NCBI GenBank assembly: GCA_964187785.1
Contig: OZ076409.1
Span: forward strand, 62,064,001 to 62,128,000
DNA: 64,000 nt
Reading direction: 5' to 3'
Source of the DNA: Amphiscolops sp. MND2022
Lineage: Eukaryota
Below the pieces are notes generated by a model. That model ran no database searches, was not told the origin of the DNA, and saw only the letters and a program-made list of their open reading frames with translations. Positions 15,498-51,900 of the stretch are shown here, in pieces. The translations under genes and the position numbers were made by a program. Numbering within the stretch: position 1 is the stretch's first letter; the number at the start of each line of letters is the position of its first letter.

Positions 15498-17329
15498 TGT
15501 GATAATCCTCTTCTGCATCTGATTATTCGTTTGAGAGTATAGTGATTTACCAAATATCTCATAATTCATAATTATCCCCCACCCTCTAAATGTCTAGACT
15601 TTAGAACAGTGCACCTCATCAAAATTCTAGATGTAAAATGAATTGACTGATGTACTACTTTATATTCAATACCATATATTCTGATCTGTACAACACAACT
15701 TAAATTGTTTCTTCATCGAATAGTTGTCTTCCTGTAAAAGACCCAATAACTGCAGCTCTGTTAGCGTCTCTTAAAGTACTACTCCTAACGTACAACTAAG
15801 ACCTACTTCTATCTTAATATCTAATAACCATAATAACACAAGTACTTTAACTGGTGCGACCACATCTTTTCTTTCCTTTTTACCAACATTTTTGTACTCA
15901 TTTTCTCTTTCAATACCAAACAATTTTTCTGTACTAATCATACAAAGTGATTCGACTCATTGTCGGTACACAACTTCAATCTTCTTCTGTACTAATCACA
16001 TATACAGTTTGAATCGATTTCGGAGTGGGTTGATTTTTGTGGAAATAGTTGTCTGGTGCGTCATGTAAGAATTCGTATAAGTCTTCAGGTTGAGTTTCCT
16101 GAGTTAATTGTTGTGAGTTTTCAGTTGTTGAGTCAGTTTCACAGACTGATGTTTTTGTGGGTTTTGGGCTCATCTGATGCTGTTAGTCATCAGCTAGGTT
16201 CGGTATTTGTGGTGATTTTGTGTAAAGGCGTGGCGTTTTGAGTTTAAATCCTTTGACGAGGACTGATGATGTCGTTCCATTTTTGGTCTGATTGGTTTTT
16301 TAGCTTGCTTGTACAGTTCGATACCTTTCTTTTGTGCTTCTGTCAAATTCCATTATGGTGGTCTGTTATCCGGCACCAAAATAGCACTCTTCTTCATTAT
16401 GGCCCGGGTTGTTGCAGTTCGAGCATTTGGGTGCTTCTGGGTCTTTTTCAAGTTTTCGCCGTTTTGTTGATTTGGGGCACTCAGTCATCACGTGGCTGGC
16501 ATCTTTGCAATAACGGCAATGATCTTTTTTGAGTGTTTTATCAGGTACTGTTTTTGGAGTTTGTTTTTTAACTTTGTCATTTTGTTTTTTGTTGGGTTTT
16601 CCAGTGTTTTGTTCCTTTTTAGTAACGGGTATTTGCGTTTTGACGAGGGGTTCGTCTGCTTCTAGACCGTTAAATTCCATTTCTCTTTCAAGATGTTTGA
16701 CTATTTGATCACATGTGCCATTTTCGAAGTAGGTTTGATTATTTGAATTTTTAGGGTGGGTAGGCATTTTCGCATATAGCAAATTCTCTATCATTTGGTG
16801 GCCTTATCCCCAAATGTTTTTTCAGCACTTTCTCGAAAATCTTCAAGAAAATTTGAATTGTTCTGATTTTCCGGGTTCAAATGAAGGTCTGTTGAAGCTG
16901 CTTTGCTGATGCACTGGACTCCGGTTTCACATACGTTCGTCTAAAGACTTTGAGTATGTCTTCTAAAGTCGTGTTTGGGGTTCGTTGTATGTTGTTGAAT
17001 GTCTTGAGCTCCAAACCCCTGAGAAGGGCATGAAAATGGTTAATTTTCATGTCCTCTGTTAGGTTTGGTTGCATTCGAAGTGTCGTGTGAATTAAGTCTT
17101 CAAAGTATTCAAAGTTCTCATATTTCTCGTTTTTTCCGTTAAATGTTAATGTATTTTTCGGATGAAAAAGTGATCGTGAGGAGTTTTTGTTGGCCAGTTT
17201 TTTTATTGCTAAGGCGATTTGATTAACTGTTTCAGGTGATTAACAAGTTGTGGTCTGCGTGGGATCCTACTGAGTCATTTAGTTTCTTGGAGCTTTGTCT
17301 ATGGAGTTGTCGGTTGGCTCCTGTCATCA

Positions 17330-18459
17330 TGTGATAATCCTCTTCTGCATCTGATTCTTCGTTTGAGAGTATAGTTACGTCTACGTCCGATTCGTTTTGA
17401 AATAACGGTTTAGCAGGATGTTTCAATTGTTTCTTTTCTGAAGCTCTAAGGGGATAATCATCGTTTTCAGTATCTGAGTTTTCGTTTTTAGACGCGTGAA
17501 CTCCTTTAGACTTGTTTGTTTTCTATCCCGACGGCTGTGAATCTTTGATTTCGTTGATTTCTGACCTCGGGTTTGTTACAGTTTATGCAGTTTGGTTGGA
17601 CTTTATTTCCTCAAAGAGTGTTTTGAGTTTATTTCCATTTCTTCTCTTATCTTTTCAATCTTATCGCTATTCTTTTGTTCCATGATCTGATACTTGAATT
17701 TTGTTACTCATCTGACTGGCTGGGTTCAGTAATTTTGTTTTCTAAGTTGTTTTCACCTAAACTCCCTTGAACTACAGTATTAATACTAGTTAAAGTCTCG
17801 TTACCTGTAATGGGCGTTCCTACTTGAGTTACTTCTACTTCTCTATCTGGGGAAGGAGTTTCCAATCTTCTAGAACGTCTATTACGTCTGTTTCACATAT
17901 TGCTTCGAGTGAAAACAAGGTTCTGGCTTTTGTGGAAGCATTTGAATTATCTTGTTTATTCAAAAGAACAAGATCTGAGGGTATCACAATGTTACCAAAA
18001 GGCTTACAGATGTATGAAGAGAACAACTGCACTAGTTAACGGTTGAGATGTGAATGAATCTCCCTCTCACTTCACAATGAAGTAGCTCCAAAAAGACCCT
18101 GACACTCCTTTTTTACCATAGTCATTGTTGGAAAAAGGTAAAAATAGAATTGCATCAGGTAATGTCATACTATTTATAACATTAGCTCAAGTCCATGACA
18201 TTCAAAATGTGGCTAGGGAAAGGACTGGAGAAACCCTGGAAATTACCTAAAATATAGAATAGAATGCATTTGGGATGATTTCCAAATACCACTTGTTCAC
18301 GTATTCACGTTATATAGTTGGTTATATATATAGCTGGAAACGCCTAGTGACGAGTGTGCGTCACTACTCCTTCCGCAAGATGCCGCATAGTGTCTCTGCA
18401 AAAAGCGCCCAGTGACGAGTATGTTCATTAGCAACATGAGGAAGGGTTTCATTCAAGGC
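17330..18459 (-). repeat. Gypsy LTR copy A1 (contains gag N-terminus)
   Basis: Near-identical to 19347-20470 and 27588-28710; followed on the minus strand by a PBS-like sequence. Confidence 0.8.
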
Positions 18460-18582
18460 CAGTTTTTTTTATTGCTAAGGCGATTTGATTAACTGTTTCA
18501 GGTGATTAACAAGTGGTGGTCTGCGTGGGATCCTACTGAGTCATTTAGTTTCTTGGAGCTTTGTCTGTGGAGTTGTCGGTTG

Positions 18583-18595
18583 ACTCCTGTCACCA
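18583..18595 (-). promoter_or_regulatory. Primer-binding site TGGTGACAGGAGT (tRNA-Leu-like); also at 26840-26852
   Basis: TGG-initiated sequence abutting the LTR end ...ATCACA; resembles the complement of tRNA-Leu 3' ends. Confidence 0.65.
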
Positions 18596-19320
18596 TGTGA
18601 TAATCCTCTCCTGCGTCTGATTTTTCGTTTTAGAGTATAGTTACGTCTACGTCCGATTCATTCAGCAGGATGTTTCAATTTTCATTTTTCATGCTCTAAG
18701 AGTCTCGTTACCTGTAATGGGGGTTCCTACTTGAGTTACTTCTAGTTCTCTATTTGTGGAAGGAGTTACCAGTCTTCTAGATTGTCTATTACGTCTGTTT
18801 TTCATACTGCTTTGAGTGAAAAATAGGTTCTGGCTTATGGGGAAGCATTTGATTTATCTTTTTTATTCAAAAGAACAAGATCTGATGGTATCACAATGTT
18901 ACCAAAAGATATACAGATGTACGAAGAGAACAACTGCACTGTTTAACGGTTGATATTTGAATGAATCTCCTTCTCAGTTAACAATGAAGTAGCTCCAAAA
19001 AACACCCTGACACTCCATTTTTACCATAGTCATTGTTGGAAAAAGGTAAAAACAGAATTGCATCAGGTAATGTCATACTATTTATAACATTAGCTCAAGT
19101 CCATGACATTCAAAATTTGGCTAGGGAAAGGACTAGAGAAACCCTGGAAATTACCTAAAATATAGAATAGAATGCATTTGGGTTGATTTCCAAATAGCAC
19201 TAGTTCACGTATTCACGTTATATAGTTGGTCCTGCTGGAAACGCCTAGTGACGAGTGTGCGTCACTACTCCTTCCGCAAGATGCCGCATAGTGTCTCTGC
19301 AAAAAGCGCACAGTGACGAT
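18596..19320 (-). repeat. Internally deleted Gypsy LTR variant (same variant at 26853-27569)
   Basis: Shares deletions (CCGATTCATTCAGCAGG; CTCTAAGAGTCTCGTTACC) and point variants with 26853-27569. Confidence 0.85.
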
Positions 19321-19346
19321 GTGTTGTCGGTTGGCTCCTGTCATCA

Positions 19347-20496
19347 TGTGATAATCCTCTTCTGCATCTGATTCTTCGTTTGAGAGTATAGTTACGTCTA
19401 CGTCCGATTCGTTTTGAAATAACGGTTTAGCAGGATGTTTCAATTGTTTCTTTTCTGAAGCTCTAAGGGGATAATCATCGTTTTCAGTATCTGAGTTTTC
19501 GTTTTTAGACGCGTGAACTCCTTTAGACTTATTTGTTTTGGATCCCGACGGCTGTGAATCTTTGATTTCGTTGATTTCTGACCTCGGGTTTGTTACAGTT
19601 TATGCACTTTGGTTGGACTTTATTTCCTCAAAGAGTGTTTTGAGTTTGTTTCCATTTCTTTTCTCATCTTTTCAATCTTATCGCTATTCTTTTGTTCCAT
19701 GATCTGATACTTGAATTTCGTTACTCATCTGACTGACTGGGTTCAGTAATTTTGTTTTCTAAGTTGTTTTCACCTAAACTCCCTTGAACTACAGTATTAA
19801 TACTAGTTAAAGTCTCGTTACCTGTAATGGGCGTTCCTACTTGAGTTACTTCTACTTCTCTATCTGGGGAAGGAGTTTCCAATCTTCTAGAACGTCTATT
19901 ACGTCTGTTTCACATATTGCTTCGAGTGAAAACAAGGTTCTGGCTTTTGTGGAAGCATTTGAATTATCTTGTTTATTCAAAAGAACAAGATCTGAGGGTA
20001 TCACAATGTTACCAAAAGGCTTACAGATGTATGAAGAGAACAACTGCACTAGTTAACGGTTGAGATGTGAATGAATCTCCCTCTCACTTCACAATGAAGT
20101 AGCTCCAAAAAGACCCTGACACTCCTTTTTTACCATAGTCATTGTTGGAAAAAGGTAAAAATAGAATTGCATCAGGTAATGTCATACTATTTATAACATT
20201 AGCTCAAGTCCATGACATTCAAAATTTGGCTAGGGAAAGGACTAGAGAAACCCTGGAAATTACCTAAAATATAGAACAGAATGCATTTGGGATGATTTCC
20301 AAATAGCACTAGTTCACGTATTCACGTTATATAGTTGGTCCTGCTGGAAACGCCTAGTGACGAGTGTGCGTCACTACACCTTCCGCAAGATGCCGCATAG
20401 TGTCTCTGCAAAAAGCGCACAGTGACGAGTATGTTCATTAGCAACTTGAGGAAGGGTTTCATTCAAGGCAAACATTACATAAGTGTTATAACTACA
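19347..20496 (-). repeat. Gypsy LTR copy A3
   Basis: TGTGAT start; the other end is CATTACA (20479) or ACTACA (20496), exact boundary uncertain. Confidence 0.8.
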
Positions 20497-24700: not shown

Positions 24701-27700
24701 TATCCTCATGCTGTATCATGAAAGATAGCATTGCTGGTTCTACCGATTGTATGTGTTTGATTTGTTCTGGGGTTAATATCGTGAAATCCGCTAAAGGGGT
24801 GTCCATTGTGATTGCCTATGGTAGTTCGGAAAAGTTGATAATTTGATACCCGACAGCATTGTTGTTAACAGTACTGAGTGATGCAGTGATAAAAATGCTA
24901 TCATGGTTTTCATACTGTTGTGATGAGGTGACTATTCCAGTTGCAATATGGTCCATCAGATGGGGCATTCTGCTTGCAATGGCAAGAGTTTCGCCTGGTT
25001 GTAAAGTACAGGTATTTTCAGCAAACAATAGTGTTTCTTGTCGTATCGATGTTTGAGTGTCAGGTTTGAGAAGCATTGAAAGATAGGGGAATGTTAGGAT
25101 GCCTTGAGTGACATCAAAAAATCCGTTATTCCTGCGGAGGAAACACAATCCGATGAGCGGTTTTGGTAGAGTTTTCATGATGATGAAATTCTCTTTAACT
25201 TGAATTCAGCCACTTTGGCCACCATGATTCGGAAATTTGGCGGAGGACCAGTTTCTTTTATTGCTTCATTTGCTAGCACTTTGATCTTATTGAGGTCTTG
25301 TTCGGAGATTGCACTTGTAAGGGCTCCGGTATCAATAAGACCATCAAGTGTGAGTTTTTCGGAGTTCATTGGAATGTAGTATATGTGGCGTTTTCACTTC
25401 AATGTCAAGGAGGTTGAAATTAGAAGGCATGACGAGTTTCGTTCCTTGTCGACTTGTATGTATTCTATAAGATCTTCATCTAAAAGGGGTTGTTTTTCAT
25501 CATTGCAAGAAATTTTTATTGTTACGTGGTCTTTTGTTGTTTTGTTGTGTGTTGGATAACTGAGTTTGAGTAGATTTCGGCGTGGGTTGATTTTTGTGGA
25601 AAATAGTTGTCTGGTGTATTATGTAAGAATTCGTATAAGTCTTCCAGTTGAGTTTCCAGAGGTAACTGTTGTGAGTTTTCTGTTGTTAAGTCAGTTTCAC
25701 AGACTGATGTTTTTGTGGGTTTTGGGCTCAGCTGATGTTGCCAGTCATCAGCTGGGTTTGGTGTTTTTTGGTGACTTTGTGCAAAGGCGTGGCGTTTCTT
25801 GTTTAAATGCTTTGACGAGGACTGATGATGTCGTTCCATTTTTGGTCTGATTGTTTTTTTAGCTTGCTTGTACAGTTCAATAACTTTCTTTTGTGCTTCT
25901 GCCAAAATCCATTTTGGTGGTCCATTATCCGGCACCAAAATAACAATCTTCTTCATTATGGCCCGGGGTGTTGCAGTCTGGGCATTTGGGTGCATCCGGG
26001 TGTTCTTCAGGTTTTTGCCGTTTTGCTAATTTGGGGCAGTCAGTCATCATGTGACTGGCATCTTTGCAATAATGGCAATGATCAATTTGAATTGTTTTAT
26101 CAGGTACTCTTTTTGGAGGTCGTTTTTTGGCGTTGTCATTTTGTTTTTGTTCGGTTTTTCAGTGTTTTGTTCCTTTTTAGTAACGGGTATTTGCGTTTTG
26201 ACGAGGGGTTCGTTTGCTTCTAGACCGTTAAGTTCCATTTTTCTTTCAAGATGTTTGACTGTTTGATCATATGTGCCATTTTCGAGCAAAGTCTCTATCA
26301 TTTGGTGGCCTTATCCTCAAATGGTTTTTCAGCACTTTTTTGAAACTCTTCAAGAAAATCTGGAATTTTCTGATTTTCCGGGATCAAATGAAAGTCTGTT
26401 GAAGCTGCTTTGCTGATGCACTGGACTCCGGTTTCACATACGTTCGTCTAAAGACTTTGAGTATGTCTTCTAAAGTCGTGTTTGGGGTTCGTTGTATGTT
26501 GTTGAATGTCTTGAGCGCCAAACCCCTGAGATGGGCATGAAAATGGTTAATTTTCATGTCCTCTGTTAGGTTTGGTTGCATTCGAAGTGTCGTGTGAAAT
26601 AAGTCTTCAAAGTATTCAAAGTTCTCATTTTTCTCGTTTTTACCATTAAATGTTAATATTTTTTTTCTGATGAAAAAGTGATTGTGAGGAGTTTTTGTTG
26701 GCCAGTTTCTTTTATTGTTAAGGCGATTTGATTGACTGGGTCAGGTGGTTTTACTGTCGAGTTTGACAAGTAGTGGTCTGCGTGGGATCCTACTGTGTCC
26801 TTTAGTTTCTGGGAGCATTGTCTGTGGAGTTGTCGGTTGACTCCTGTCACCATGTGATAATCCTCTCCTGCGTCTGATTTTTCGTTTTAGAGTATAGTTA
26901 CGTCTACGTCCGATTCATTCAGCAGGATGTTTCAATTTTCATTTTTCATGCTCTAAGAGTCTCGTTACCTGTAATGGGGGTTCCTACTTGAGTTACTTCT
27001 AGTTCTCTATTTGTGGAAGGAGTTACCAGTCTTCTAGATTGTCCTTTACGTCTGTTTTTCATACTGCTTTGACTGAAAAATAGGTTCTGGCTTATGGGGA
27101 AGCATTTGATTTATCTTTTTTATTCAAAAGAACAAGATCTGATGGTATCACAATGTTACCAAAAGATATACAGATGTACGAAGAGAACAACTGCACTGTT
27201 TAACGGTTGATATTTGAATGAATCTCCTTCTCAGTTAACAATGAAGTAGCTCCAAAAAACACCCTGACACTCCTTTTTTACCATAGTCATTGTTGGAAAA
27301 AGGTAAAAACAGAATTGCATCAGGTAATGTCATACTATTTATAACATTAGCTCAAGTCCATGACATTCAAAATTTGGCTAGGGAAAGGACTAGAGAAACC
27401 CTGGAAATTACCTAAAATATAGAATAGAATGCATTTGGGATGATTTCCAAATAGCACTAGTTCACGTATTCACGTTATATAGTTGGTCCTGCTGGAAACG
27501 CCTAGTGACGAGTGTGCGTCACTACTCCTTCCGCAAGATGCCGCATAGTGTCTCTGCAAAAAGCGCACAGGTTGGCTCCTGTCATCATGTGATAATCCTC
27601 TTCTGCATCTGATTCTTCGTTTGAGAGTATAGTTACGTCTACGTCCGATTCGTTTTGAAATAACGGTTTAGCAGGATGTTTCAATTGTTTCTTTTCTGAA

Positions 27701-28736
27701 GCTCTAAGGGGATAATCATCGTTTTCAGTATCTGAGTTTTCGTTTTTAGACGCGTGAACTCCTTTAGACTTATTTGTTTTGGATCCCGACGGCTGTGAAT
27801 CTTTGATTTCGTTGATTTCTGACCTCGGGTTTGTTACAGTTTATGCACTTTGGTTGGACTTTATTTCCTCAAAGAGTGTTTTGAGTTTGTTTCCATTTCT
27901 TTTCTCATCTTTTCAATTTATCGCTATTCTTTTGTTCCATGATCTGATACTTGAATTTCGTTACTCATCTGACTGACTGGGTTCAGTAATTTTGTTTTCT
28001 AAGTTGTTTTCACCTAAACTCCCTTGAACTACAGTATTAATACTAGTTAAAGTCTCGTTACCTGTAATGGGCGTTCCTACTTGAGTTACTTCTACTTCTC
28101 TATCTGGGGAAGGAGTTTCCAATCTTCTAGAACGTCTATTACGTCTGTTTCACATATTGCTTCGGGTGAAAACAAGGTTCTGGCTTTTGTGGAAGCATTT
28201 GAATAATCTTGTTTATTCAAAAGAACAAGATCTGAGGGTATCACAATGTTACCAAAAGGCTTACAGATGTATGAAGAGAACAACTGCACTAGTTAACGGT
28301 TGAGATGTGAATGAATCTCCCTCTCACTTCACAATGAAGTAGCTCCAAAAAGACCCTGACACTCCTTTTTTACCATAGTCATTGTTGGAAAAAGGTAAAA
28401 ATAGAATTGCATCAGGTAATGTCATACTATTTATAACATTAGCTCAAGTCCATGACATTCAAAATTTTGCTAGGGAAAGGACTAGAGAAACCCTGGAAAT
28501 TACCTAAAATATAGAATAGAATGCATTTGGGATGATTTCCAAATAGCACTAGTTCACGTATTCACGTTATATAGTTGGTACTGCTGGAAACGCCTAGTGA
28601 CGAGTGTGCGTCACTACTCCTTCCGGAAGATGCCGCATAGTGTCTCTGCAAAAAGCGCCCAGTGACGAGTATGTTCATTAGCAACACGAGGAAGGGTTTC
28701 ATTCAAGGCAAACATTACATAAGTGTTATAATTACT
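21701..28736 (-). mobile_element. Ty3/Gypsy copy B: gag-PR-RT-RNaseH-INT (3'-truncated, frameshifted) with two LTR copies
   Basis: LIDTGA protease; RT KLDCSQAYH and QYVDDI; RNase H SDASF and NTAADFLSR; integrase HPG, DILPNLP and TDLGTHF. PR-RT-RH-INT order is Gypsy-type. Confidence 0.95.
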
Positions 28737-29536: not shown

Positions 29537-32500
29537 CCTGAACTCTCGAAATGGAACTTTTGTCGCTTGTGTATCAGCCTTTGGGTTAAGAATGTAGCAA
29601 TAATCAGTTGTTTCAAGCGGAGCTCCTTTCGCTTTGCGGTTTTAGTAAGCATTGTAATTAAAGTAAGATTGCATGATGTTCTTCTTAGTTTGATCTAGGA
29701 GGAGTTTCATGCGTTTTTGAATTTCTTCTGCTAAATCTGCTTGCGGTTGGTATCGTGGATTAGGGTTGTATCCGAGTTTGTAGTCTAGGTTCTTGTTTGG
29801 TATTCTACCATGGAAGACTCGTGAAGGTTCACAATCGAGTGATGCATGGTATGTTGCGTTGTGATTAAGGACAGCCGAAGGGAGGTATTTATGCCAGTTA
29901 TTCCTCAACTCGCCTGTTGCAGCTTTTAGGTGTGTTTTGATGTTTCATTGTTGCGTGCTTCCGTTCAATTCCCAGCACTGCTGCAAATTCGTGAGTTACT
30001 TGTGCATTGAATTGAGTGCCTAAATCCGTCATTATTGTTGTTGGAAGGTATGTGTGTTTGCATTGAATGTCCATGATGACTCTTGATACTGTTGTAGCAG
30101 TAATACGAATTACAGGGTAGGCAAACAAGTATCTTGAGAAGACATCTATTGCTGTGATGATATCATCATAGCCTCCACTGGGGGGAAGGTTTGGTAAAAT
30201 ATCCATTTGCAAGATGTCTTCCTGTCCGAGGTCCCATTCTGGACAATTGAGGAGATCTGTCCTGAGGAGGTCATGATTGATTCGTTTTGTTTGGATGCAG
30301 ATTTGGCACTTATTAACCCAGTTTTTGATGTTTTTTGCCATGCATGTGTAGTACCATTTTTGCCGTGCTTCTTGATTCATCTTGGTGATTCCGGGATTGT
30401 TTGAACTATGAACATGTAGAGCCTGAAACAATTCTTCTAGGAGTTGGATTGGTAGAAAGTTTTGGTAGTGAGATATGGTTCCGGTGTCCGTGTGGTATTT
30501 GCGTGTGAGAACTTCCTGTTTTATCTCTATTTGCGTTGTTTTGTAAGTAGTGCTGATATCTATAGTCTGATGCCAGTTCATTTTCGTCAAAAGGGTTTCC
30601 TTCAATGTTTTCTCTCAGGTGTCTAAGGACTATGTCATTATTCTGCTCAAGGCGGATTCTTTCGTTGTCTTTAAACTATCCTGAGGAGTAGGAGATCAGT
30701 CTTGATGTAAGTTTGTGAAATTGTTGTAGCTCAGAAACAGCGTTTTCTTGGTCATTGTGTGTTCCGGTTTGTGCTTGATTCCATATGTTTTGTTTTTCTT
30801 ACCATAATTGATTTTCATCAATTTCGTCATCAGTGAGAACATACATTTATTCTTCTTCGACGATGCTGGATGGGTGATAATTCACTTCAATCGCTTTCGT
30901 GTGAATATCATTGCGAATGGCCATTTCCAGTTTTTTGGTTGGATCGACTTCCGTTCTAGATAAGAAGTCGGCAGCGGTGTTCAATGATCCAGCAACATGG
31001 GCGTTCACGAAATTGTATTGTAGGACATAATCGCAGGCCTTCCAGAGTGCTGGAGGGATCATTTTTGTTTAGAAAAAAACGGGTTACTGAACCATTATCT
31101 GTGAACACGATTACTGGAAAGGTACTACCCCACATGAGGTGTCCGAATTCAACAAATGCAAAGTATATGGAAAGAATTTCTTTTGCATAAATTGACATTT
31201 TTGTCTGTGTTGGGTTGAAAATTTTTGAATCAAATGCTATGGGAGCATTTGTTTTGCGTTTGGATTGGAGTTTTTGGTTCGGGTCGTCTTGGATCATGAT
31301 AGCATATCCTGCTGCTGTGAAACTTGCATCGGACACGACTATAAGGTGCTTGTTTTTCAGTGGTTGTTTTAAAACTAACTGGCAGGGATTTTCTAGGAGT
31401 TTGTTGATGTTTTTGAAGTCTTCTACCAAGTTTGTTGGTAAGTAGAATTTGGAGGTATCTTTGAGGAGTTCGAAGAACGAAGAGAGAGCCGTTTCGAAAG
31501 GCGTGGTATGTAGTTTTGGTAAAAGTTCAAAAATCCGATATACCTCTGTAACGCCTTTTTTGATTTGCGAAAGCAAAGTTTTGAGAGGAAATCTTTCACT
31601 TTGTCGGCTTGACTCCGTTGGGTGTGATTGTGCGTCCCAAAAAGTCGTCTTGTTTGACTTCAAAGTGGCATTTTGACATAGAGAGTTTTAATCCTGCTTT
31701 GCGTTTGCATTCAAAGACAGTTTTGATATTTGTACACAATTGTTTTGTTTCATTTGACGCTATGCCAATGTCGTCGACATACTGGGCACATTGGTATGCT
31801 TTAATTGCTCTGTCTAGGTACTCTCTCACAAAGCTTGAAAATGCAGAAAGTGATCCGCTGATGCCCTGAGCAAGGCGACGATAAGCAAATGTTCTACTTG
31901 CAAAATTGAAAGCGAGCATTTGAATGGATTGGCAATCGGCCATCTGAAGGCAGTGGTAAGCCTGTAAGCAATCCAATTTGCAAAAAAAATTTCCCTGCCA
32001 TGTGTTGGACTGCATCTGATAAAGTGCTTACCGGGTGGTTGTTATTGGAGTAATCTTCAAAGATGAGGTTGTTATTCTTCCTGAGGTCTACTAAAAGTCT
32101 GAGGCGCCCGTTGGGTTTGCGTTGCGCAAAAATTGGGTTTGCATGTTCGGCGAAAGGTAAAGAGCTGTAATGAACCGTACTTGTGTGTAGAAGTGCAAGT
32201 TCTACTGTGATATCATCTTTGAGGTTGATAGGAGATGGCAGATTTTGACTGTAAGCGTTTCTGTCATCATTTGGCGTTAGTTTCACTTTGAATTCACGGT
32301 TTATGCTTTATCGAAACGATGTCTGGCAAAAATATCGTGGAATTCAATGAGGATCTCTTCAATTTCTTGTCGTTCGTCTGGGCTGCGCGTTGTGTCGGAC
32401 GAGTCGAAGTAGGAAAGGAATGTTTTTCTGGATGTGTCGTTATCATTTGGGTTCAATTCATTGATTTCTTTTAGTTCGAGAAGCTCATTGTGGATACGTT

Positions 32501-35452
32501 GCTGAATTGGAGTATATGTTGCCGGATCGCCTGGTTCTTCAGTGGTTGGGAACCAGTATGTTTACTGCTCTGAATTTTGTTTTAGTACTTTGAGAAGTTC
32601 ATTTATGCAGACTTCCGTTGTATCCTCTTGCTGTATCATGAAAGATAGCAATGCTGGTTCTACTGGTTGTATGTGTTTGATTTAATCTGGGGTTATTATC
32701 TTGAAATCCGCTAAATGGGTGTCCATTGTGATTGTGGATTGTAGTTCGGAAAAGTTGATGATTTGATACCCGACAGCATTGTTGTTAACAGTACTGAGTG
32801 ATGCAGTGATGAAGATGCTATCATGGCTTTCAAACTGTTGTGATGGGGTGACTATTCCAGTTGCGTTATGGTCCACCAGATGGGGCATTCTGCTTGCAGT
32901 GGCAAGAGTTTCGCCTGGTTGTAAAGTATAGGTAATTTCAACAAACAGTGGTGCTGCTTGTCGTATCGATGTTTGAGTGTCAGGTTTGAACTGCATTGAA
33001 AGGTAGGGGAATGTTAGGATGCCTTGAGTGACATCAAAAAATCCGTTATTCCTGCGGAGGAAACACAATCCGATGAGCGGTTTTGGTAGAGTTTTCATGA
33101 TGATGAAATTCTCTTTTAACTTGAAATCAGCCACTTCAAATTCTAGTAGTACAGTACCAATAGGGACTTCTAGTTGTCCGTTGGCTACCATGATTTGGAA
33201 ATTTGGTGGAGGACCGGTTTCTTTTATTGCTTCATTTGCTAGCAAGTTGATCTTATTGAGGTCTTGTTCGGAGATTGCACTTGTAAGGGCTCCGGTATCA
33301 ATAAGACCGTTCAAGTGTGAGTTTTTCGAAGTCCATTGGAATGTAGTACATGTGACGTTTTCGCTTCAATGTCAAGGAGGTTGAAATTGGAAGGTTTGAC
33401 AAGTTTCGTTCCTTGTCAAAGTGTATGTATTCGGTGAGATCTTCATCTAAAGGGGGTTGTTTATCATCATTGCAAGAAGTTTTTATTGTTTGGTGGTATT
33501 TTGTTGTTTTGTCGTGTGTTGGATAACTGAGTTTGAGTTGATCTCGGGGCGGGTTGAATTTTTTGGAAAGTAGTTGTCTGGTGCGTCAGATTAGAATTCG
33601 TATAAGTCTTCGGGTTGAGTTTCCAGAGTTAACTGTTGTGAGGTTTCTGTTGTTAAGTCAGCTCCACAGACTGATTTTTTTTGCGGGTTTTAGGTTCAGC
33701 TGATGCTGCCAGTCATCAGCTGGGTTTGGTGTTTGTGGTGATTTTGTGTAAAGGCGTGGCGTTTCTAGTTCAAATCCTTTGATGAGGACTGATGATGTCG
33801 TTCCATTTTTGGTCTGATTGGTTTTTTAGCTTGCTTGAACAGTTCGATAACTTTCTTTTGTGCTTCTGTCAAATTCCATTTTGTTGGTCTGTTATCCATA
33901 GTGGCACCACCAAAATAGCAATCTTCTTCATTATGGCTCGGGGTTTTGCAGTTTGGGCATTTGGGTGCATCCGGGTCTTCTTCAAGTTTTCGCCGTTTTG
34001 CTAATTTGGGGCAGTCAGTCATCATGTGGCTGGCATCTTTGCAGAAACGGCAATGATCATTTTTGAGTGTTTTATCAGGTACTGTTTTTGGAGTTTGTTT
34101 TTTAGCTTTGTCATTTTGTTTTTTGTTGGATTTTTTTAGTGTTTTGTTCCTTTTTAGTAACGGGTATTTGCGTTTTGACGAGGGGTTCGCTTGCTTCTAG
34201 ACCGTTAAGTTCCATTTCTCTTTCAAGATCGTCGTTTTCAGAATCTTAGTTTTTGTTATTAGATGCGTGAACTCCTATAGACTTATTTGTTTTGGATCCG
34301 ACGGATGTGGATCTTTGATTTAGTTGATTTCTGACCTCGGGTTTGTTACAGTTGGTGCACTTTTGTTTGACTTTATTTCCTTTAAGATTGTTTCGAGTTT
34401 GTTTTCCATTTCTTCTCTCATCATTTCAATCCTATCGTTATTCTTTTGTTCCGTGATCTGGGTCCATACTTGAATTTCGTTACTCATCTGACTGGGTTCA
34501 GTAAGTTGGTTTTCTAAGTTCTTTTCACCCAATCTCCCTTGAACTACAGTATTAATACTAGTTAAAGTCTCGTTACCTGTAATGGGCGTTCCTACTTGAG
34601 TTACTTCTACTTCTCTATTTGGGGAAAAAGTTTACAATCTTCTAGAACGTCTATTACGTCTTTTCCCATATTGCTTCGAGTGAAAAACAGGTTCTGGCTT
34701 TTGGGGAAGCATTTGAATTATCTTGCTTATTCAAAAGAACAAGATCTGAGGGTATCACAAGGTTACCAAAAGGCTTACAGATGTATGAAGAGAACAACTG
34801 CACTAGTTAACGGTTGAGATGTGAATGAATCTCACACTCAGTTTACTATGAAGTAGCTCCAAAAAATACCCTGACACCCCTTTTTTACCATAGTCATTTT
34901 TGGAAAAAGATAAAAGGAGAATTGCATCAGGTAACGTCATACTATTTATAACATTAGCTCAAGTCCATAACATTCAAAATATGGGTAAGGAAAAGACTCG
35001 AGAAACCCTGGAAATTACCTAGAATATAGTATAGAATGCATTTGGGATTTCCAAATAGCACTTGTTCACGTATTCACGGTATATAGTTGGTCCTGCTGGA
35101 AACGCATAGTGACGAGTTAGCGTCACTACTCGTTCCACAGGATGCCGCATAGTGTCTCTGCAAAAAGCGCCTGGTGACGAGTATGCGTCACGCCTTGAAA
35201 CGTATAATGCGCATACTGATATCGACAAATCCGCATGGCGACGAGTATACGTCACTCTTCGAATTATAGTGGTACCATGCTAAGATGCAAGTTACTATAT
35301 GAGGACGATTTCAAATGAACTAAAGCTTCCAAATTATATCATTTGAGACTGGGTATAGGTAAATAAGGGCTCTCAATGACGTTTTATTGTTCATTAGCAA
35401 CATGAGGAAGCGTTTACTTCAAGGCAAACATTACATAAATGTTATATTTACA
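29537..35452 (-). mobile_element. Ty3/Gypsy copy C: gag (deleted at ~34228), PR-RT-RNaseH-INT and the longest LTR version
   Basis: LIDTGA, QYVDDI, VVSDASF, VFTD, ADFLSR, CQIC, QMDIL and TDLGTQF. It has the same 3' junction as copy B. Confidence 0.95.
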
Positions 35453-36670
35453 TGACTTCGTGAAAAACTAACAGAAAAACAAAACAAAATGCTAGTTCGT
35501 TGGTTTAAAGTTTTGATTCATATCCTAGCTTTGAGAGCTTGTTGTGGCTGTCATCTTGTTTGGCTTTGATTACTGCTGCGCTACGGCACCCACGCAACTC
35601 CTTGCGATAGTTGGCAACTAAAAATGGAATAAAACTTTTGCATCTGATAGAACGTTCAATTTTTGATCATTTGACGGAACACCATGATATCGGGCAGTAG
35701 CATCAACGATTTCGTTCTGATAACACTGGACGAATACATGTCCTTGTTGTCTTTGAGAACTACCAAATCAGAAACCACAAAATCCGAAATCGCGAATCTC
35801 AGTGAATCTTTCCCACAAGCAATCCTGCCGAATGTTGATAAAAGAACCAGTTGCGAACGGCAAGGAACAAATGCGGAAAAAAATTGCACGCAAGTCAATT
35901 CAAACTCGAGGTTGCAAGCTCCATCCAAAAGAGCGCTCCTGCTGATGACGACTTATCTAACAAGGCTACATCTCTTGCAAAAACGGACAGGATTGTGCTC
36001 GATTTGCTTTCTTCGGGACTTTCCGTGGGCAAAGTTGAGCGGTCGAGCCAAATCTTGCAAAAAATTGATCGGACCAAAGATGTGTCGATTGATTCAACTC
36101 TGGTCGATTACTAATGCACGACGGAGACGTAAATATACCATGTTTTGAGTTTTTGAATGACCCACATGTAACCACAAAAAAATTGAGTGAAAATGCTTTC
36201 GAACTGATCAGGAGAATCCGGTTAAATGAGTTTCTTCTCGCTAATACAAATACAAAAATTGTTGCATCAGAATTTGTTCACTATCACGAAGAACGGATTT
36301 GGAAGAAAAGATTGGAAGTTCCTCACCTGCTAAATGGTTGCGTTTATAATAGCAAGAATCAGTTTCATGCGAAACTCAGTTCCCGGCAGTTGATCTTACA
36401 GCAGGAAATGTGTAAAATTAAAAAAGATACAACTAGAAAATATAAAACAAAATAATTTAGTGTAAGTTGTGCCAATGATTTGGGTCGAGGCTCTCAAGAA
36501 CATCCTCCAATCTGGTTCAACGTATGTGGTTGGGACCAATTTGCGTGATGAGGTCTAAAACAGATGAAGGATTACAAGAAAAACTATAGCTTTTTATGCA
36601 CAAAGTGTTCAGCAACAAGACGATTGATCCAGCAAACAGAAGAAACCTTCGCACAGGGCACCTTGAATAA
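35453..36670 (+). pseudogene. Polinton segment, copy 3 (continuous with the rest of the Polinton)
   Basis: Homologous to copies 1 and 2 but continues past GAAACCTTC into unique sequence. Confidence 0.75.
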
Positions 36671-38869: not shown

Positions 38870-39852
38870 TGGACCAAAATCGAACTAGCAGCATCCTGCT
38901 AGTTCGTTACCGGATGTTTATTGTAATTTTCGAAGCGCTCTCAAACAGACTTCTATATGCACATTCAAAAAAGTTGACAACTTTTTCAACTGCAGCGAGA
39001 GCTCTTCCAAGTGTAAACAAACGCGCAATCATTTTCTCTGGTTGAAAGTTCAAAGCTACCGGTAGAATAGGATTTGGTTCATTGACTTGGCACACATGCA
39101 AAAGTTGGCAAGACACAACCATGGAGTTAACTTTAGCATGGTAGCAGTTGACACCCTGAATCGGTTTTTTGGGCAACGCCATTGAAACGCAAAACGGCCA
39201 TCGAATGTAAAAATTTCTTCTAGTTCATTAATAACAATCTCAACTCCAGAGGAAACAACAAAGCAAACCCTTTGAAGCTCAAATTCTGTTCAACAAATTG
39301 CGCAATTCCCCTGAAGCCTGAAAAAATTTGGGTAAATAAAGGTCGAGAATTTGCAGGACACTTTTCAGAATACTGCACTGATAATGACATCCAAATTTAT
39401 TCCACGCACAGGAAACAAAGTCAGCGTTTGCAGAGCGCAGTATTCGATCACTGAAGGCAAATTTGTTCAAATTTTTGCACGAAAAACAACATCGATACTT
39501 ATGTAGAAAACCTGCAACAATTCGTGGACGTCATCAACCGCCGTGTTAATCGTGTCACCAAGCTAGCTCCAAAGGAAGTACGCAAGTCGGATGTTCCATA
39601 ATTGATTTCCTTGAAAACACTAATACCCCTCTTCGGCTAATGTTTCACATTGTCCAGCAAATGAGAATAAAACGTAAAAGTGAGACTTTTCATAGATGGT
39701 ACCGCATTCAGTCCACTGAGGAGGTTTTCACAATAGCCGCAGTACAAACACTGAACCCTCCCACTGATACAATTAGGGACGCCAACACTCAGTTGTTTCT
39801 TGGGAAATTTCATGAGTCTGAACTAACTAGATTCGAAGAATCTCCTTTGTAA
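38870..39852 (+). pseudogene. Polinton retroviral-like (rve) integrase
   Basis: IWFIDLAHM, MVAVDTLNRF, PEKIWVNKGREF (WxDxGxEF), SAFAERSIRSLK, LAPKEV, EEVFTI and GKFHESEL; stops and frameshifts present. Confidence 0.92.
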
Positions 39853-39882
39853 TTCGGAAGCCGCTTGAACAAACTGGCGGAA

Positions 39883-40800
39883 ATGCAATCCCAAGACTTT
39901 ACAATGAATTTAGTGTCAAACGCCTCGATAGCAACCTTTCCAAACAAGACGCTGGCACACATGACAACCTCACTATCACAACAACTTATCCGGAGCGTGG
40001 GAAGTAGCAGTGTCGGAAGTTTCGTGGCCTTCAGCAATTCAAAGCATTACCAGCGGCAAATTCAAGTACCAGCTAAAACCAGCTCAACCAGATGATGGGC
40101 ATAGAGAAGACCAGAGGGAAAAAATTCACAAGAGAGCGTATGGCCTAGTGACCATGCACACCCCTCCTAAAATTGAAGATCATTACCTTGAACAGAAGAC
40201 CGGTACCATTAAACCAGGATTTTGCTTGACTGTCGACAAAATTTTGACGAACATTTTCAAAAAATCTTTTTAATTGCTGCAGCATAATTGCCAGTTACAT
40301 GAAATGTTGACAAGTCGTCACAAACATTGAAGGTTTGTTTTGATGGTAGCGAACGTGATTGCATTCTATTGAAAGCTACATCAAACGATTTGCAAAATAT
40401 GTTGGGCTTGAAAACAATTATTGATTGTAAGGAAGACAGTCAGTTCAACTTCGAGAACCAACCCTTTGAATTCAAAGACTGTCAGCAAGTTTCCAATTGA
40501 TATCAGCGGTGTGTGCAAGACGATCTATCTCTATTGCGATGTGGTGCAAAATGAAATTTTGGGAGACTCACAGACTGCGTTACTACGTATTCCACTATGC
40601 AATTTCCCAAGTAAACACCCCAGGCAACAATATTTAAACTATCAAACATTTACCAATCTCCAGTGGCGACGAATAGTCAAATCGAGCATCGAGTCAATAA
40701 CAATTTCCTTACGTAGCGAGTCGAGCCATCTGTTGCTTTTTTTAAGTCGAGGTCGCACGAACATCACTCTTCAATTTCGCCAACGCTGTGAGAGTTCCAT
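39883..40800 (+). pseudogene. Polinton minor capsid (penton) protein, copy 1
   Basis: FTMNLVSNAS..FPNKTLAHMTT.L, SEVSWP, IYLYCDVVQNEILGDSQTALLR and IESITISLR...ITLQFR. Confidence 0.88.
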
Positions 40801-41069
40801 TCTGGTCAAAGTCATCACCCTGAGCGGTCGCTTTATCGATGCTTCTTGCGATGCTCATTTTGGACTGCAAGTTCATCATCAATAAACATTTGGCGGCCCG
40901 GCGAGGCAATTTGGATCCGGTGGAATGGGCGCTTTTGCCATGCGTATGGGAAGAGTAGCGGTACCCCTTGTGAAAAATATATCTTGCCAGTTGCAAAACA
41001 GTTTGGAAAAAACTTGGTTCCGGCTTTTGTTACTGAACTGTCAACCGTTGTTTTCGGAAAAAACGACTT

Positions 41070-42765
41070 GTTTCAGAAAACCGCACTGATAATGACATCC
41101 AAATTTATTCCACGCACAGCGAACAATGTCAGCGTTTGCAGAGCGCAGTATTCGATCACTGAAGGCAAATTTGTTCAAATTTTTGCACGAAAACAACATC
41201 GATACTTATGTAGAAAACCTGCAACAATTCGTGGACGTCATCAACAGCCGTGTTAATTGTGTCACCAAGCTAGCTCCAAAGGAAGTACGCAAGTCGGATG
41301 TTCCATATTTGATTTCCTTGAAAACACTAATATTCCTCTTCGGCTAATGTTTCACATTGCCCAGCAAGTGAAAACAAAACGTAAAAGTGAGACTTTTCAT
41401 AGATGGTACTGCATTCAGTCCACTGAGGCGGTTTTCACGATAGCCGCAGTATAAACACTGAACCCTCCCACTGATACAATTAGGGACGCCAACACTCAGT
41501 TGTTTCTTGGGGAATTTCATGAGTCTGAACTAACTAGATTCGAAGAATCTCCTTTGTAATTCGGAAGCCGCTTGAACAAACTGGCGGAAATGCAATCCCA
41601 AGACTTTACAATGAATTTAGTGTCAAACGCCTCGATAGCAACCTTTCCAAACAAGACGCTGGCACACATGACAACCTCACTATCACAACAATTTATCCGG
41701 AGCGTGGGAAGTAGCAGTGTCGGAAGTTTCGTGGCCGTCAGCGATTCAAAGCATTACCAGCGGCGAATTCAAATACCAGCTAAAACCAGCTCAACCAGAT
41801 GATGGGCATAAAGAGGAACAAAGGGAAAATTTCGCAAGAGACTGTATGGCCTAGTGACAATGTACACCCCTCCTAAAATTGAAGATCATCACCTTGAACA
41901 GAGAACCGGGACCATTAAACCAGGATTGTGCTTGACTGTCGACCAAATTTTGACAAGCATTTTCAAAAAATCTTTTCAATTGCTGCAGCATAATTGCCAG
42001 TTACATGAAATGTTGACAAACTTCACAAACATTGAAGGTTTATTCTGATGGTAGCGAACGTGATTGCATTCTATTGAAAGCTTTATCAAACGATTTGCAA
42101 AATAAATTGGGCTTGGAAACAATTATTGATTGTAAGGAAGGCAGTTCAACTTCGAGAACCAACCCTTCGAATTCAAAGACTGTCAGCAAGTTTCCAATTG
42201 ATATCAGCTGTGTGTGCAACACGATCTTTCTCTATTGTGATGTGGTGCAAAATGAAATTTTGGGAGACACACAGACTGCGTTACTACGTATTCCACTAAG
42301 CAATTTCCTAAGTGAACACCCTAGGCAACAATATCTAAACTATCAAACATTTACCAATCTCCAGTGGCGACGAATAGTCAAATCGAGCATTGAGTCAATA
42401 CCAATTTCCTTACGTAGCGAGTCGGGCCATCTGTTGCCTTTTTTAAGTCGAGGTCGCACGAACATCACTCTTCAATTTCGCCATTGCTGTGAGAGTTCCA
42501 TTCTTGTCAAAGTCATCACCCTAAGCGGTCGCTTCATGGATGCTTCTTGCGATGCTCATTCTGTACTGCAAATTCATCATCAATAAACATTTGGCGGCCC
42601 GGCGAGGCAATTTGGATCCGGTGGAATGGGCGCTTTTGCCATGCGTATGGGAAGAGTAGCGGTACCCCTTGTGAAAAATATATCTTGCCAGTTGCAAAAC
42701 AGTTTGGAAAAAACTTGGTTCCGGCTTTTGTTACTGAACTGTCAAACGTTGTTTTCGGAAAAAAG
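41070..42765 (+). repeat. ~1.7-kb tandem duplicate of 39363-41063 (integrase 3' half, minor capsid, core protein 5' part)
   Basis: Near-identical sequence restarts at TTTCAGAA..CCGCACTGATAATGACATCC (~41071). Confidence 0.95.
41590..42500 (+). pseudogene. Polinton minor capsid protein, copy 2
   Basis: Same motifs as copy 1 (FLYCDVVQNEILGDTQTALLR). Confidence 0.88.
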
Positions 42766-44989: not shown

Positions 44990-47900
44990 TACTTTTGACA
45001 AGCATTTTTACAGGAAGGTTCAGCATCAGGGCTTACATCGCTTTCAGAAGCCTCGTAGTCTAAAAAAGGACATGCAAAACGTGTAGCATCGGAATCAGAA
45101 ATTTCATCATTGGTAAGGGTATCAAAATTGATACACTGAGCTTCCTTGTCAGAACTCTCGTCGCTTGATTGGTTGAGAATGATCCAGGATCAGGAGCCGC
45201 TAAAATTGAAACATCTTTGTATCACACTCATCGAGTTTATCGATTAGTACAAGGTAATGCATGACAACTAGGATACCGTGTCATCTAAAATGTACCGCTT
45301 GTCATCGTAGCAGCTCAAAGGAACTTTGTTGACAGAGTTGACAAATATTTGATGACAGGTTGATTTGAGTTGAATCATCTTTCTACGTTCTGTTGATCGA
45401 GAAATTCGACCATCTGTGAATAAATTATGATGTAGCCTTTTTTGAAAGATTTCTGAACGCCTTTAGCACTCTGCTTAGTTCCTCCCACGTGATCGATGCT
45501 ATACAAGTTAGAACTCAAACAGACAACTTGTTTTAAAACTTTTCCGTTGAGTTCATCGGTCATTGTTAATGGTACCTTTTTGTTGGCTTTCTCTTGTAGA
45601 AAATGATTAACAGAGTGTTCCGAGAGGTCCAATAGATGTTTGAATGTGGCCATATTTTTATACAATTCTTCAGTTTTGATTCGATAAAGCAGGGAGTCTG
45701 TGTCTTTGTACGCTACTTTTACACGGTCTGCTCCATACCGCGGAAACATCTCCTCATATTGAAACTTGTACAAAGAAAGTTTTAAAAGTCCAAAATACTC
45801 ATGCCAACGTGTGTTGGTTTGTTCCATACCACTGAAGAGGGTTTCAAAGGAACAGAAACAAAATTTTTCTGATGTTTTCGAAACTTTTGAAGGTTGCCCG
45901 TTGAAAAACGTTTCAGCTTGAGTCTCTGTTGGAACGAACTTTAGAGTACTCACTACGATACATATGCCGCAAAAGTGGACTTTGTCATCCAGTGTAATGT
46001 GTATTTTCCGTAAAACGAGAGCAAACCGTATTCTAGTCAAATAGTGCACTGTGTTCATCGGGGATTGTGATGCACAGTGTAACAAGAATTTTTGCATCGT
46101 GATCATTGAGACTGATCTTGTAAAGTAGGTATTTACTGTATTTTGATCACTACGCGTAACGCCAAATCACACAGTGTAACGATGCAAAACACGTAACGCA
46201 TATATGAAATAAGAACGCGTTTTCCTTGGCTGTTAATCGAAATAGCAAGATCTTGCTAGTTCGTTGCGTCAAATGTATCGTGATGCTACGTCTTCTTAGA
46301 TTTTCCATTGTTTTGCTAAAAAAACATTCGACATTAGCTTGTGAAAATTTTTCTCGGAGTCAGTCGCGGCAATTTTACGCATTACAGTTTCTTTGGCTAT
46401 GTACGTTCCCAACCATTTCGACTGATGAAATTTTATCGCCCGGTGTAGATTCGTGACTATAGGACCATGTTAGAAATAGAATTTAACGTTTTCATGATGG
46501 CAAATGTAGTTATTTGTCAAGCATGGTCTCTATAAGCTTTTTATTTGCCGAGCTCATATTCAATCCAAATGACTTGGCAAAATCCGATTTCCATTCTTTA
46601 GGTATTTTTAGTTTTTCCGGAGTCAATGAAAGATCATTATGAGAGTTGTGTATTCAGGGAGGGTACACGAGGTCAACCTCGACGAAGTAACCAACGGGAG
46701 AGTCTTTGGGCGTAGACAGAATTTCATTCAAAGTAATATCAAGACACCATTGATACCCTCCGAGAGGCATTCCCATTTGCATCGTTCCTGCGTACAGAGA
46801 TGTTACATCAAAAAACGCCCCAAAAGTAACGTCTTTTTCAGGATTGAAATTATCCAGATACTTGTTGTTAGCTTCAAAATGCCCCAAGGCACCAACACCA
46901 TTGATTTTTTCTCGGATTGTTCTCTCAAATAACAACAGCTGATCAGTTTCCTGCATTAGTTCCATTTAAACGCCAGTTTTGATTTGCATGGCATCCCAAC
47001 TCAGGTTCGGAGCCGAATAAAAATGAGCTGTATCTAGCCTGTAGACTTGCAAGCAGACCTCCCTGAACCTTTGAAAAATATCGACCAGGATGAACACTTT
47101 TCAGATAGATATCTTGATAGTCGCCTAAATTTTGGCAAAGAAAAGCATTTTACATCTCCAAAGCACAACCATAATCTTGCTCAGTAATTTCAATACGTTT
47201 GCAAACTTTTCAAGGGAGTCAAGAAAAATGTATGGAAAGAGTCGTTTTGGGAAGATACTCTCGGTAATGTTTGGAGAACATGCCTTCAACAACTTGAAGT
47301 CTTGCTTGTCCAAGATTTCATCTAAAGATCCCAAGCTCTGAGACATAAACTGGAAGCTGTCCAGAAACCGTCAAGAATGATATTGAATGTAATTGTGACC
47401 CTTCTTGCTTTTGAGTTTTTCTATGGGCATATCCAAAAAGAACGAAATATGTAAGTTTCATGGTTTTTCGCTGTAGATGACAACTTTTCACCAGTCTCGA
47501 TTACCAAGTATTCAATAATATGATATGAGCGTCATAACGCGAGAGGTTGTGAAAAAATGCCGCCAAGAAAGTTGTTGTTCTCGCACGCAGGTTGCACTTG
47601 GAAAGAGCTACTCCAAATATTGTATCCGTTAGGTGACAGTGGTGAATTACCTGTTGACTTTCTTTCATCTCCTCACCACATAAACGGCATCTCAAGTAAT
47701 CTTGGTTCAGTAGAGAAATTCTATCATCTTTGGATATTCGTAGATTTTACATTTGTGTTTCTCTTTGAAATGCCATGTTGACCACAACTGAAGCAACTTC
47801 ATCCAATGTTGAATGCAGTCTTTTCCTTTTTAAATCTCTTTCTTCACAAAACTGTTACTTAAACTAAAAATTTTGGGTCAGAACGGGTTTCGTGAAACGC

Positions 47901-51290: not shown

Positions 51291-51448
51291 CTTTCGACCT
51301 GTCAGATGCTTCGAGTCAGCAGAAAAATATTAGCATCGTTAAACATTTTCGGTGGTCTGCTCAATTTAGGCACTACGTTTCCACCGCCAGGATTCTCGAA
51401 TTAAGCTTCTAAATTTGTTTAATATAAAATGTGCTTTGTGTTGTATAG

Positions 51449-51900
51449 GTGTTTGTGTGCAGACAGAGACAGTGTTGAGACAGGCTATTGCTGAGAGAAT
51501 TAAGCCTGTTCTCTTCATGAACAAAATGGACCGCGCTCTCCTCGAACTGCAGATGGCTCAAGAGGATCTTTATCAGACTTTCCAGAGGTGTATCGAAAAC
51601 GTGAACGTGATTGTGAACACATACGCTACTGATGAAGAGAACAAAGATTTGGGTAAGATGGACGTCGATCCTTGTGAGGGCACAGTGGGGTTTGGCTCAG
51701 GTTTGCATGGATGGGCATTCACATTGAAACAATTCGGCGACATGATGGGCAAGAGGATGGGCGTCGATAGCAAGAAGCTCATGTCCAGATTGTGGGGCGA
51801 TTGGTGCTTCAGCAAAACTGAAAAGAAGTGGAAGAATCAACAGCCGACCTACGACTACCCCAGAGGTTTCTGTCAATACGTTCTGGACCCTATCTACAAG
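51449..51900 (+). CDS. EEF2: Eukaryotic elongation factor 2, next exon (G4-G5; 3' boundary uncertain)
   Basis: TGTATAG| phase-1 acceptor, then [34 protein letters not shown] and LDPIYK. Similarity ends after VFD (~51909) and no later exons were recognised in the window. Confidence 0.92.

Follow-up and report, generated by a model that had tools for sequence, protein, structure and literature searches.

Organization of the locus

The window, that is, the whole 64,000-nt stretch of DNA that was analysed, carries on its minus strand, between 15.5 and 36.7 kb, an array made up of decayed copies, in part duplicates, of a single gypsy-type element. The following features were recognized in the array, with the source of each assignment in brackets.

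17330–18423, minus strand: LTR copy A, 5' part absent, last base 17330 (alignment of copies)
17330–17898, minus strand: LTR-encoded first ~190 codons of gag, broken here by stops and a frameshift, intact in relatives (tblastn, relatives)
17318–17329, minus strand: primer-binding site (PBS), a decayed variant; its in-frame reading is part of M-x-T-G (sequence)
16242–17329, minus strand: internal gag with linker, capsid domain and two zinc knuckles, broken (tblastn; Pfam and fold search on relatives)
18173–18178, minus strand: candidate TATA box, the sole TATAAA in copy A (putative, sequence motif)
17955–17960, minus strand: candidate poly(A) signal, 62 nt upstream of the ATG; AATAAG in copy C (motif)
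17633 and 17607, minus strand: two more candidate AATAAA, inside the frame (sequence motif)
15498–15543, minus strand: 46-bp fragment of the LTR 3' end next to unrelated flank, a probable 3' LTR remnant (97.8% identity)
15544–15587, minus strand: purine tract, then a sequence agreeing at 7/9 positions with the inverted LTR terminus; candidates for the PPT and for the start of a 3' LTR with an internal deletion (inferred)
19347–20433, minus strand: LTR copy A0, tandem duplicate of A (97.7% identity to A)
18596–19319, minus strand: LTR copy A1, internally deleted, followed by a canonical PBS at 18584–18595 (alignment)
27588–28673, minus strand: LTR copy B1 (alignment)
26853–27570, minus strand: LTR copy B2, internally deleted, followed by a canonical PBS at 26841–26852 and decayed gag-pol to ~21700 (alignment, tblastn)
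34228–35387, minus strand: LTR copy C, whose upstream part is the longest (~720 nt precede the ATG at 34669) and whose junction was removed by a deletion into late gag (alignment, tblastn)
29537–34227, minus strand: late gag and pol of copy C (protease, RT, RNase H, integrase), broken, integrase end absent (Pfam, tblastn)
35388–36650, no strand assigned: upstream flank common to A0, B1 and C (self-comparison)

Six LTR-like copies were aligned, namely A, A0, B1, C and the two internally deleted ones. Since A0, B1 and C have one upstream flank in common and the identity among A, A0 and B1 is ~97.6%, the copies A, A0, B1 and C are most likely duplicates that arose from one insertion event. Because both share one flank, A and C probably diverged after insertion; the differences between them in 40 codons (five, of which three are at third and two at first positions) are too few to be interpreted.

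The EEDYH end of the gag frame recurs at 15498, as had been noticed in the initial annotation of this DNA, where the 46-bp fragment adjoins unrelated DNA at the identical base. The abrupt junction was thus confirmed, whereas the accompanying assignment of the flank to Polinton DNA did not receive confirmation from Pfam. That label presumably goes back to ATPase-like motifs in the translations, and the upstream flank at 35388–36650 is likewise Polinton-like by our assumption. The four bases that close the upstream flank recur at the beginning of the flank behind 15498, which makes them a candidate 4-bp target duplication. In addition, a candidate purine tract is found at 15575–15587 and a 7/9 candidate for the LTR start at 15579, 80 nt upstream of 15498; this is the sole site of its kind between 14 and 37 kb. 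The purine tract with the 7/9 match and the four-base repeat might be compatible with a single element whose 3' LTR suffered an internal deletion. The 5' end of the LTR is not preserved in the window copies, and the position at 15579 is the only candidate for it.

Tandem units consisting of an LTR, a PBS and a short internal piece were observed at 18457–20469 and 26700–28709. Repeated TGACG/CGTCA motifs occur in the upstream part of the LTR (18330–18420 and 35100–35263, minus strand); they resemble CRE half-sites, and we take them to be possible enhancer repeats. A splice-donor-like GTAAGC is located at 18007 (minus strand), 47 nt upstream of the first AATAAA, and is changed in the two deleted copies.

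Class of the element

The order of the pol domains, i.e., protease, RT, RNase H and integrase, was established with Pfam for the window pieces and the database protein P0377 and by tblastn positions. The integrase is of the DDE type and lies behind RT and RNase H, although both window pol copies end inside it. An assignment to the Ty1/copia class was rejected, as the integrase is downstream of RNase H and not upstream of RT. Among solved chains, the RT was nearest to those of foamy virus and Ty3. For the Gag core, the Ty3_capsid and Retrotrans_gag matches in Pfam fell below the curated cut-offs (E 0.002–0.03), and the top Foldseek rows were the PNMA2, dArc1, RSV and Ty3 capsids, none of which reached E 0.001; zf-CCHC passed in two of the three full Gags scanned. 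The CA end of the LTR is visible, and direct terminal repeats are indicated indirectly, by the paired repeats described below and by the recurrence of the end at 15498. A segment between protease and RT (P0377 ~820–905; ~32700–32930 in the window) had no Pfam match and presumably resembles the dUTPase-like inserts of some gypsy clades.

The host is a eukaryote, since the frame at 51370–51945 has its best match in eEF2 chains. The element may resemble those of acoels. The figures given for an acoel genome, 28.2% Gypsy and 4.5% Maverick (PMC6451197), fit this setting and prove nothing.

LTR end and primer-binding site

The initial annotation had described a minus-strand consensus frame with its ATG at 17898 in copy A and at 34669 in copy C. 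These positions were confirmed, together with the stretch that follows the ATG (RNRRSRRLETPSPDREV / RNRRSRRLETPSP) and the run EESDAEEDYH up to the junction. The frame itself is open in none of the window copies. Copy A has a stop directly after the ATG and a frameshift near codon 61, and its two tblastn pieces contain one and five stops; the other long copies contain two to four stops per piece. In copy A, 569 nt separate the ATG from the end of the repeat. The final base of the LTR is 17330, which is the A of the junction ATG, so that the repeat terminus reads ...TATCACA.

The primer site had been quoted as TGGTGACAGGAGT, read as MVTG. At 17329, this is not what is found, since the site there reads TGATGACAGGAGCC (MMTG); however, TGGTGACAGGAGT is present at 18595 and 26852, in both cases behind an internally deleted LTR copy. 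The last A of the LTR and the TG of the PBS together form the junction Met codon. The presence of an in-frame Met at this point can therefore be explained by the DNA constraint CA+TGG.

MVTG is near-invariant in all lineages of the relatives, and the residues behind it vary. Rare tails (MVTGVGL twice and MVTEVGYEPT once, in P0242, P0348 and P0389) agree with tRNA-Leu 3' ends read in antisense, which give TGVGFEPT in the viral contigs L008 and L009; we infer that a longer stretch of the primer tRNA was copied behind the LTR in these cases. Twelve viral-contig matches to the complementary motif included three tRNA-Leu, two Met, one Tyr and one Arg at the match. The primer is likely tRNA-Leu, with the qualifications that tRNAs for Met, Tyr and Arg agree with the motif too when it is considered by itself and that the comparison covered the tRNAs of viral contigs. 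The motif does not appear in the part of the PBS table of PMC13524379 that was covered.

Relatives that cross or leave the frame at the LTR end

As the broken window copies could not prove the position of the gag start by themselves, related proteins were examined. All of them are database proteins of one source class (ENA) and may derive from a single host assembly or a few. With a 96-aa query from both sides of the junction, 197 longer proteins were matched, and 118 of the 120 listed read through the His|MVTG junction. Many relatives are ~560 aa long, use the same start Met and pass the junction at residue 183–193; thus, the LTR-coded segment of ~190 codons makes up the first third of Gag. 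The internal part of gag was used alone as an independent query and gave 2991 matches. Among the 120 listed, the upstream Met is the first residue of 92; another 22 begin within the LTR part, two at the junction and four later. Since a query without any LTR part returned this result, the upstream frame appears to be the rule among the closest relatives and not an effect of query selection. DNA of an intact element was sought in viral contigs, JGI metagenomes and GTDB genomes, and no usable match was obtained there. Five pattern matches in JGI metagenomes encode no Gag and were rejected as relatives, as was a weak archaeal match of 58 aa in GTDB.

If the repeat ends in ...TATCACA, copies of the LTR that run into other DNA must show a codon beginning with A after the His. 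Predicted proteins that diverge directly past EEDYH, which the initial annotation had recommended looking for, were present in large numbers. Near-length relatives, which are shorter than the full Gags, gave 386 matches; of the 120 listed, 88 diverge directly after the His, 19 read through, and 13 that end or diverge before the junction residue were left uncounted. The residue after the His was T in 24 proteins, S in 15, N in 14, K in 12, R in nine, I in eight, M in five and L in one. Hence, a residue encoded by an A-first codon comes next in 87 of 88, against a background of 0.445 (binomial p ~1e-29), and in 85 of 86 when two break-offs that are frameshifted read-through types are removed. 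As a control, the second residue past the His belonged to the A-first set in 42 of 87. The same residue class was seen in all 37 truly diverged cluster members (70 listed, 18 of them without a junction match), and in 12 of 12 representatives of the 50% clusters, with the distant lineages P0371 and P0327 included in these results. These counts indicate that the repeat ends ...TATCACA. The pattern matches in P0229, P0312 and P0367 lay away from the junction and were dropped.

Apart from two related pairs, the tails tested were mutually unrelated; their median length was 17.5 aa, and a few reached 50–103 aa. The tails of P0166 and P0219 comprise 103 and 86 aa. They look to us like in-frame joins, presumably to a Polinton capsid-like sequence and to another Gag N-terminus, and Pfam lent no support to a join with any mobile element. 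The protein P0001 contains three junction copies within one frame.

The relation between the two types of protein was addressed through 350 proteins on contigs of known length, 321 of which were typed as read-through or break-off. Equal length of two contigs served as a stand-in for one contig, so that the pairs carry no orientation, distance or target duplications. On this basis, 15 read-through/break-off pairs were obtained. In ten, the identity across the LTR part was 0.96 or higher, with one comparison covering 37 residues only; two of the remaining five were at 0.90–0.94 and three at ~0.7. In random pairs, by comparison, only 0.6% of 1498 reached 0.95. The highly similar pairs indirectly indicate young 5' and 3' LTRs of single elements.

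A different explanation of the shared break-off point is a hot spot of deletion or insertion, a splice site, or another architecture altogether, such as tandem units or a tyrosine-recombinase element. The window is indeed a tandem array of LTR-plus-PBS units, three such units occur in P0001, and no complete element was seen. A common insert or splice donor would nevertheless have left related tails or a shared second residue, and with the exception of the two related pairs neither was found. Moreover, the CA end with a tRNA-like TGG next to it, a DDE integrase encoded after RT and RNase H, and the near-identical pairs on equal-length contigs all disagree with such explanations, which we consider extremely unlikely.

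Constraint and evolution of the LTR-encoded part

The frame was compared in 42 full Gags picked from the matches. Its LTR-coded length is 183–193 residues in 41 of them. The mean pairwise identity of the LTR part is 0.52 (minimum 0.29) versus 0.90 for the capsid; residues 1–16 reach 0.80. At a 50% cut the LTR part falls into three groups, and the frame is kept across these lineages at 29–37% identity. In a neutral simulation, from which indels were left out, none of 2000 pairs stayed open at 0.31–0.40 identity; since the protein database holds open frames only, this simulation overstates the case for any single pair. The distant lineages form clusters of 27–78 members and thus replicated with the frame open. 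The maintenance of the frame in three lineages down to 29% identity indicates that it is selected as the N-terminus of Gag.

The tree of the LTR part had a length of 7.65, compared with 2.01 for the core, which suggests an approximately fourfold faster evolution of the LTR part than of the Gag core. In addition, 7 of 21 supported splits of the LTR-part tree were in conflict with the core tree (alignment A2; e.g., P0070 and P0021). This result suggests an exchange of LTRs between subfamilies in which the N-terminal domain of Gag was carried along.

The open frame in the LTR could also be one that is never translated within Gag. Transcription would then start inside or behind it, Gag would be made from the junction Met (MVTG), and the upstream frame would be a relic or a separate product of the 3' LTR, for which MMTV sag and HIV nef are known analogues. 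An in-frame Met stands exactly at the junction, and the LTR part does evolve fast, both as expected from this explanation. However, the junction Met is accounted for by the CA+TGG constraint, and two of the 120 listed matches to the internal query start there. Furthermore, the frame lacks a stop codon of its own and runs into random tails, an arrangement incompatible with a separate product. The frame, its first Met and the basic first 16 residues are kept in three lineages. A relic or a separate product is therefore very unlikely.

Three independent lines from the relatives, namely the exact break-off with an A-first codon, the near-identical pairs and the frame kept at 29–37% identity, thus support the proposal made in the initial annotation that the gag start codon lies ~190 codons within the LTR and that reading continues across the LTR end and the PBS. 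We assign a probability of roughly 0.87 to the reading that the element is a member of a lineage of Ty3/gypsy LTR retrotransposons whose host is a eukaryote, probably an animal, and whose Gag starts ~570 nt inside the LTR.

Predicted properties of the LTR-encoded part

The LTR-encoded part has a layout of a basic start, one long helix and an acidic disordered linker. Six K/R are found in residues 1–16 and 12 D/E in residues 151–193, forming a charge gradient. In the structure model (mean pLDDT 50), residues 1–230 are disordered outside a single helix at 62–102, with block pLDDT values of 78–85 over 71–100; this predicted 40-residue helix is likely a coiled coil. Gly2 is present in 255 of 264 starts, and a broad myristoylation pattern fits 245 of 264. 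The strict motif MGxxxS/T, as it is used in bioRxiv 2025.03.14.642691, was found in 13 of the 42 Gags only. There was no significant Pfam family for this part and no look-alike in the ESM Atlas, where the best score was 0.78. By its position, the part corresponds to a matrix-like domain. As a lead for further work, its job may most likely be membrane or nuclear targeting together with help in Gag assembly.

Proposed expression and fate of the LTR copies

Transcription would start in the 5' LTR upstream of the ATG, with the candidate TATA at 18178, which would place the Gag frame in R and/or U5. The initial annotation treated the whole ~570-nt coding stretch as U5. Of the three candidate AATAAA signals, two fall within the frame: with the signal at 17960 the entire frame would be U5, and with that at 17633 or 17607 about half of it would be R. 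The upstream candidate is altered in copy C and is not evident in some upstream translations of relatives. Ribosomes would then cross the LTR end and the PBS into the capsid, as in Ty1 but more than 10 times further. Reverse transcription would copy the coding stretch to both ends, so that the 3' LTR and any solo LTR would receive a second copy that has no stop and needs no function of its own.

The run-out frames of 3' and solo LTRs could, on the other hand, be selected in their own right, with a truncated N-terminal Gag that limits copy number or seeds host fusion genes. Hundreds of open frames exist (386 matches, most of the listed ones being of the break-off type), and some tails are long, up to 103 aa, including the two that we presume to be joins in spite of the lack of Pfam support. 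Restriction by a truncated Gag is described for Ty1 (PMC10951436), where the capsid C-terminal domain is involved. At the same time, copying alone is enough to give young 3' LTRs an open frame, and the median tail of 17.5 aa equals the expectation for random DNA; selection of the run-out frames thus appears unlikely. Returning to a gag start inside the LTR, a doubtful extension is that the LTR acts as a self-contained cassette comprising a promoter, a start codon and a 190-residue helical module for targeting to the membrane or the nucleus, without a stop. In that case, 3' and solo LTRs would make truncated Gag with a locus-specific tail, and an LTR swap would move the promoter and the Gag N-terminus together. 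If true, this would provide hundreds of ready-made host fusion genes and a built-in trans-acting control of copy number.

Comparison with known elements

The layout of LTR and PBS is Ty1-like, with a start codon upstream of the LTR end and a continuous frame through the PBS. In Ty1 of S. cerevisiae, the 5' UTR occupies RNA nt 1–53 and is followed by the AUG, the PBS lies at nt 95–104, and silent changes in the PBS leave the Gag sequence intact (PMC5454406). As here, GAG of Ty1 begins in the 5' LTR and reads through the PBS; however, its LTR-encoded part amounts to ~41 nt (13–14 codons) of a 334-bp LTR, compared with ~570 nt (183–193 codons) of an LTR of at least 1.29 kb in the present element. 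Ty1 also differs in its copia order and its tRNAiMet primer, in contrast to the gypsy order and the Leu-like PBS described here.

The present element is similar to Ty3/gypsy (Metaviridae) in the putative capsid with zinc knuckles, the PR-RT-RH-IN order, and the CA terminus followed by a putative PBS. Gag of Ty3/gypsy elements normally starts behind the PBS, whereas one third of Gag precedes it here. Hundreds of coding nucleotides within an LTR are known from MMTV sag, HIV nef and foamy virus bel2, but these genes belong to U3, and it is the 3' LTR copy that expresses them, up to a stop codon of their own. In the element studied, the frame occupies the PBS-proximal end, would be read from the 5' LTR, and meets no stop before the LTR ends. 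A full-text literature search outside subscription journals and Repbase turned up no Gag segment as large as a domain within an LTR, and an earlier description is possible. The layout is unusual in scale, and Ty1 is the closest precedent found.

Annotation tools and dating by LTR divergence treat LTRs as non-coding, while in this case ~570 nt code for a third of Gag and show constraint at the protein level between subfamilies. In hosts with many copies of the family, this affects the calling of LTR boundaries and also gene prediction, which yields numerous short and spurious "genes" ending in random tails. The layout requires a long strong-stop DNA, read-through of a poly(A) signal in the 5' LTR and the passage of ribosomes across the primer site. 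It also constitutes a natural, highly replicated experiment in gene birth, in which hundreds of identical start modules are joined to different random tails.

Other features of the window

Outside the array, a 171-bp satellite was found at 53413–54655 and 61313–64000 (~7 and ~16 copies, with a higher-order period of 341 bp), and a tandem repeat of ~202–210 bp is located at 1315–2217 (4.4 copies, 91% matches). A 1.7-kb tandem duplication with 95% identity at 39363–42764 carries frames that we take to be Polinton-like. The frames at 45375–48456 (minus strand) show a DTDS-type motif and zinc-ribbon-like stretches; they had no significant Pfam match and are presumably pieces of a protein-primed B-family polymerase. 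The frame at 51370–51945 (plus strand) best matched eEF2 chains and represents an exon of a host gene, or a copy of one, amid mobile-element DNA.
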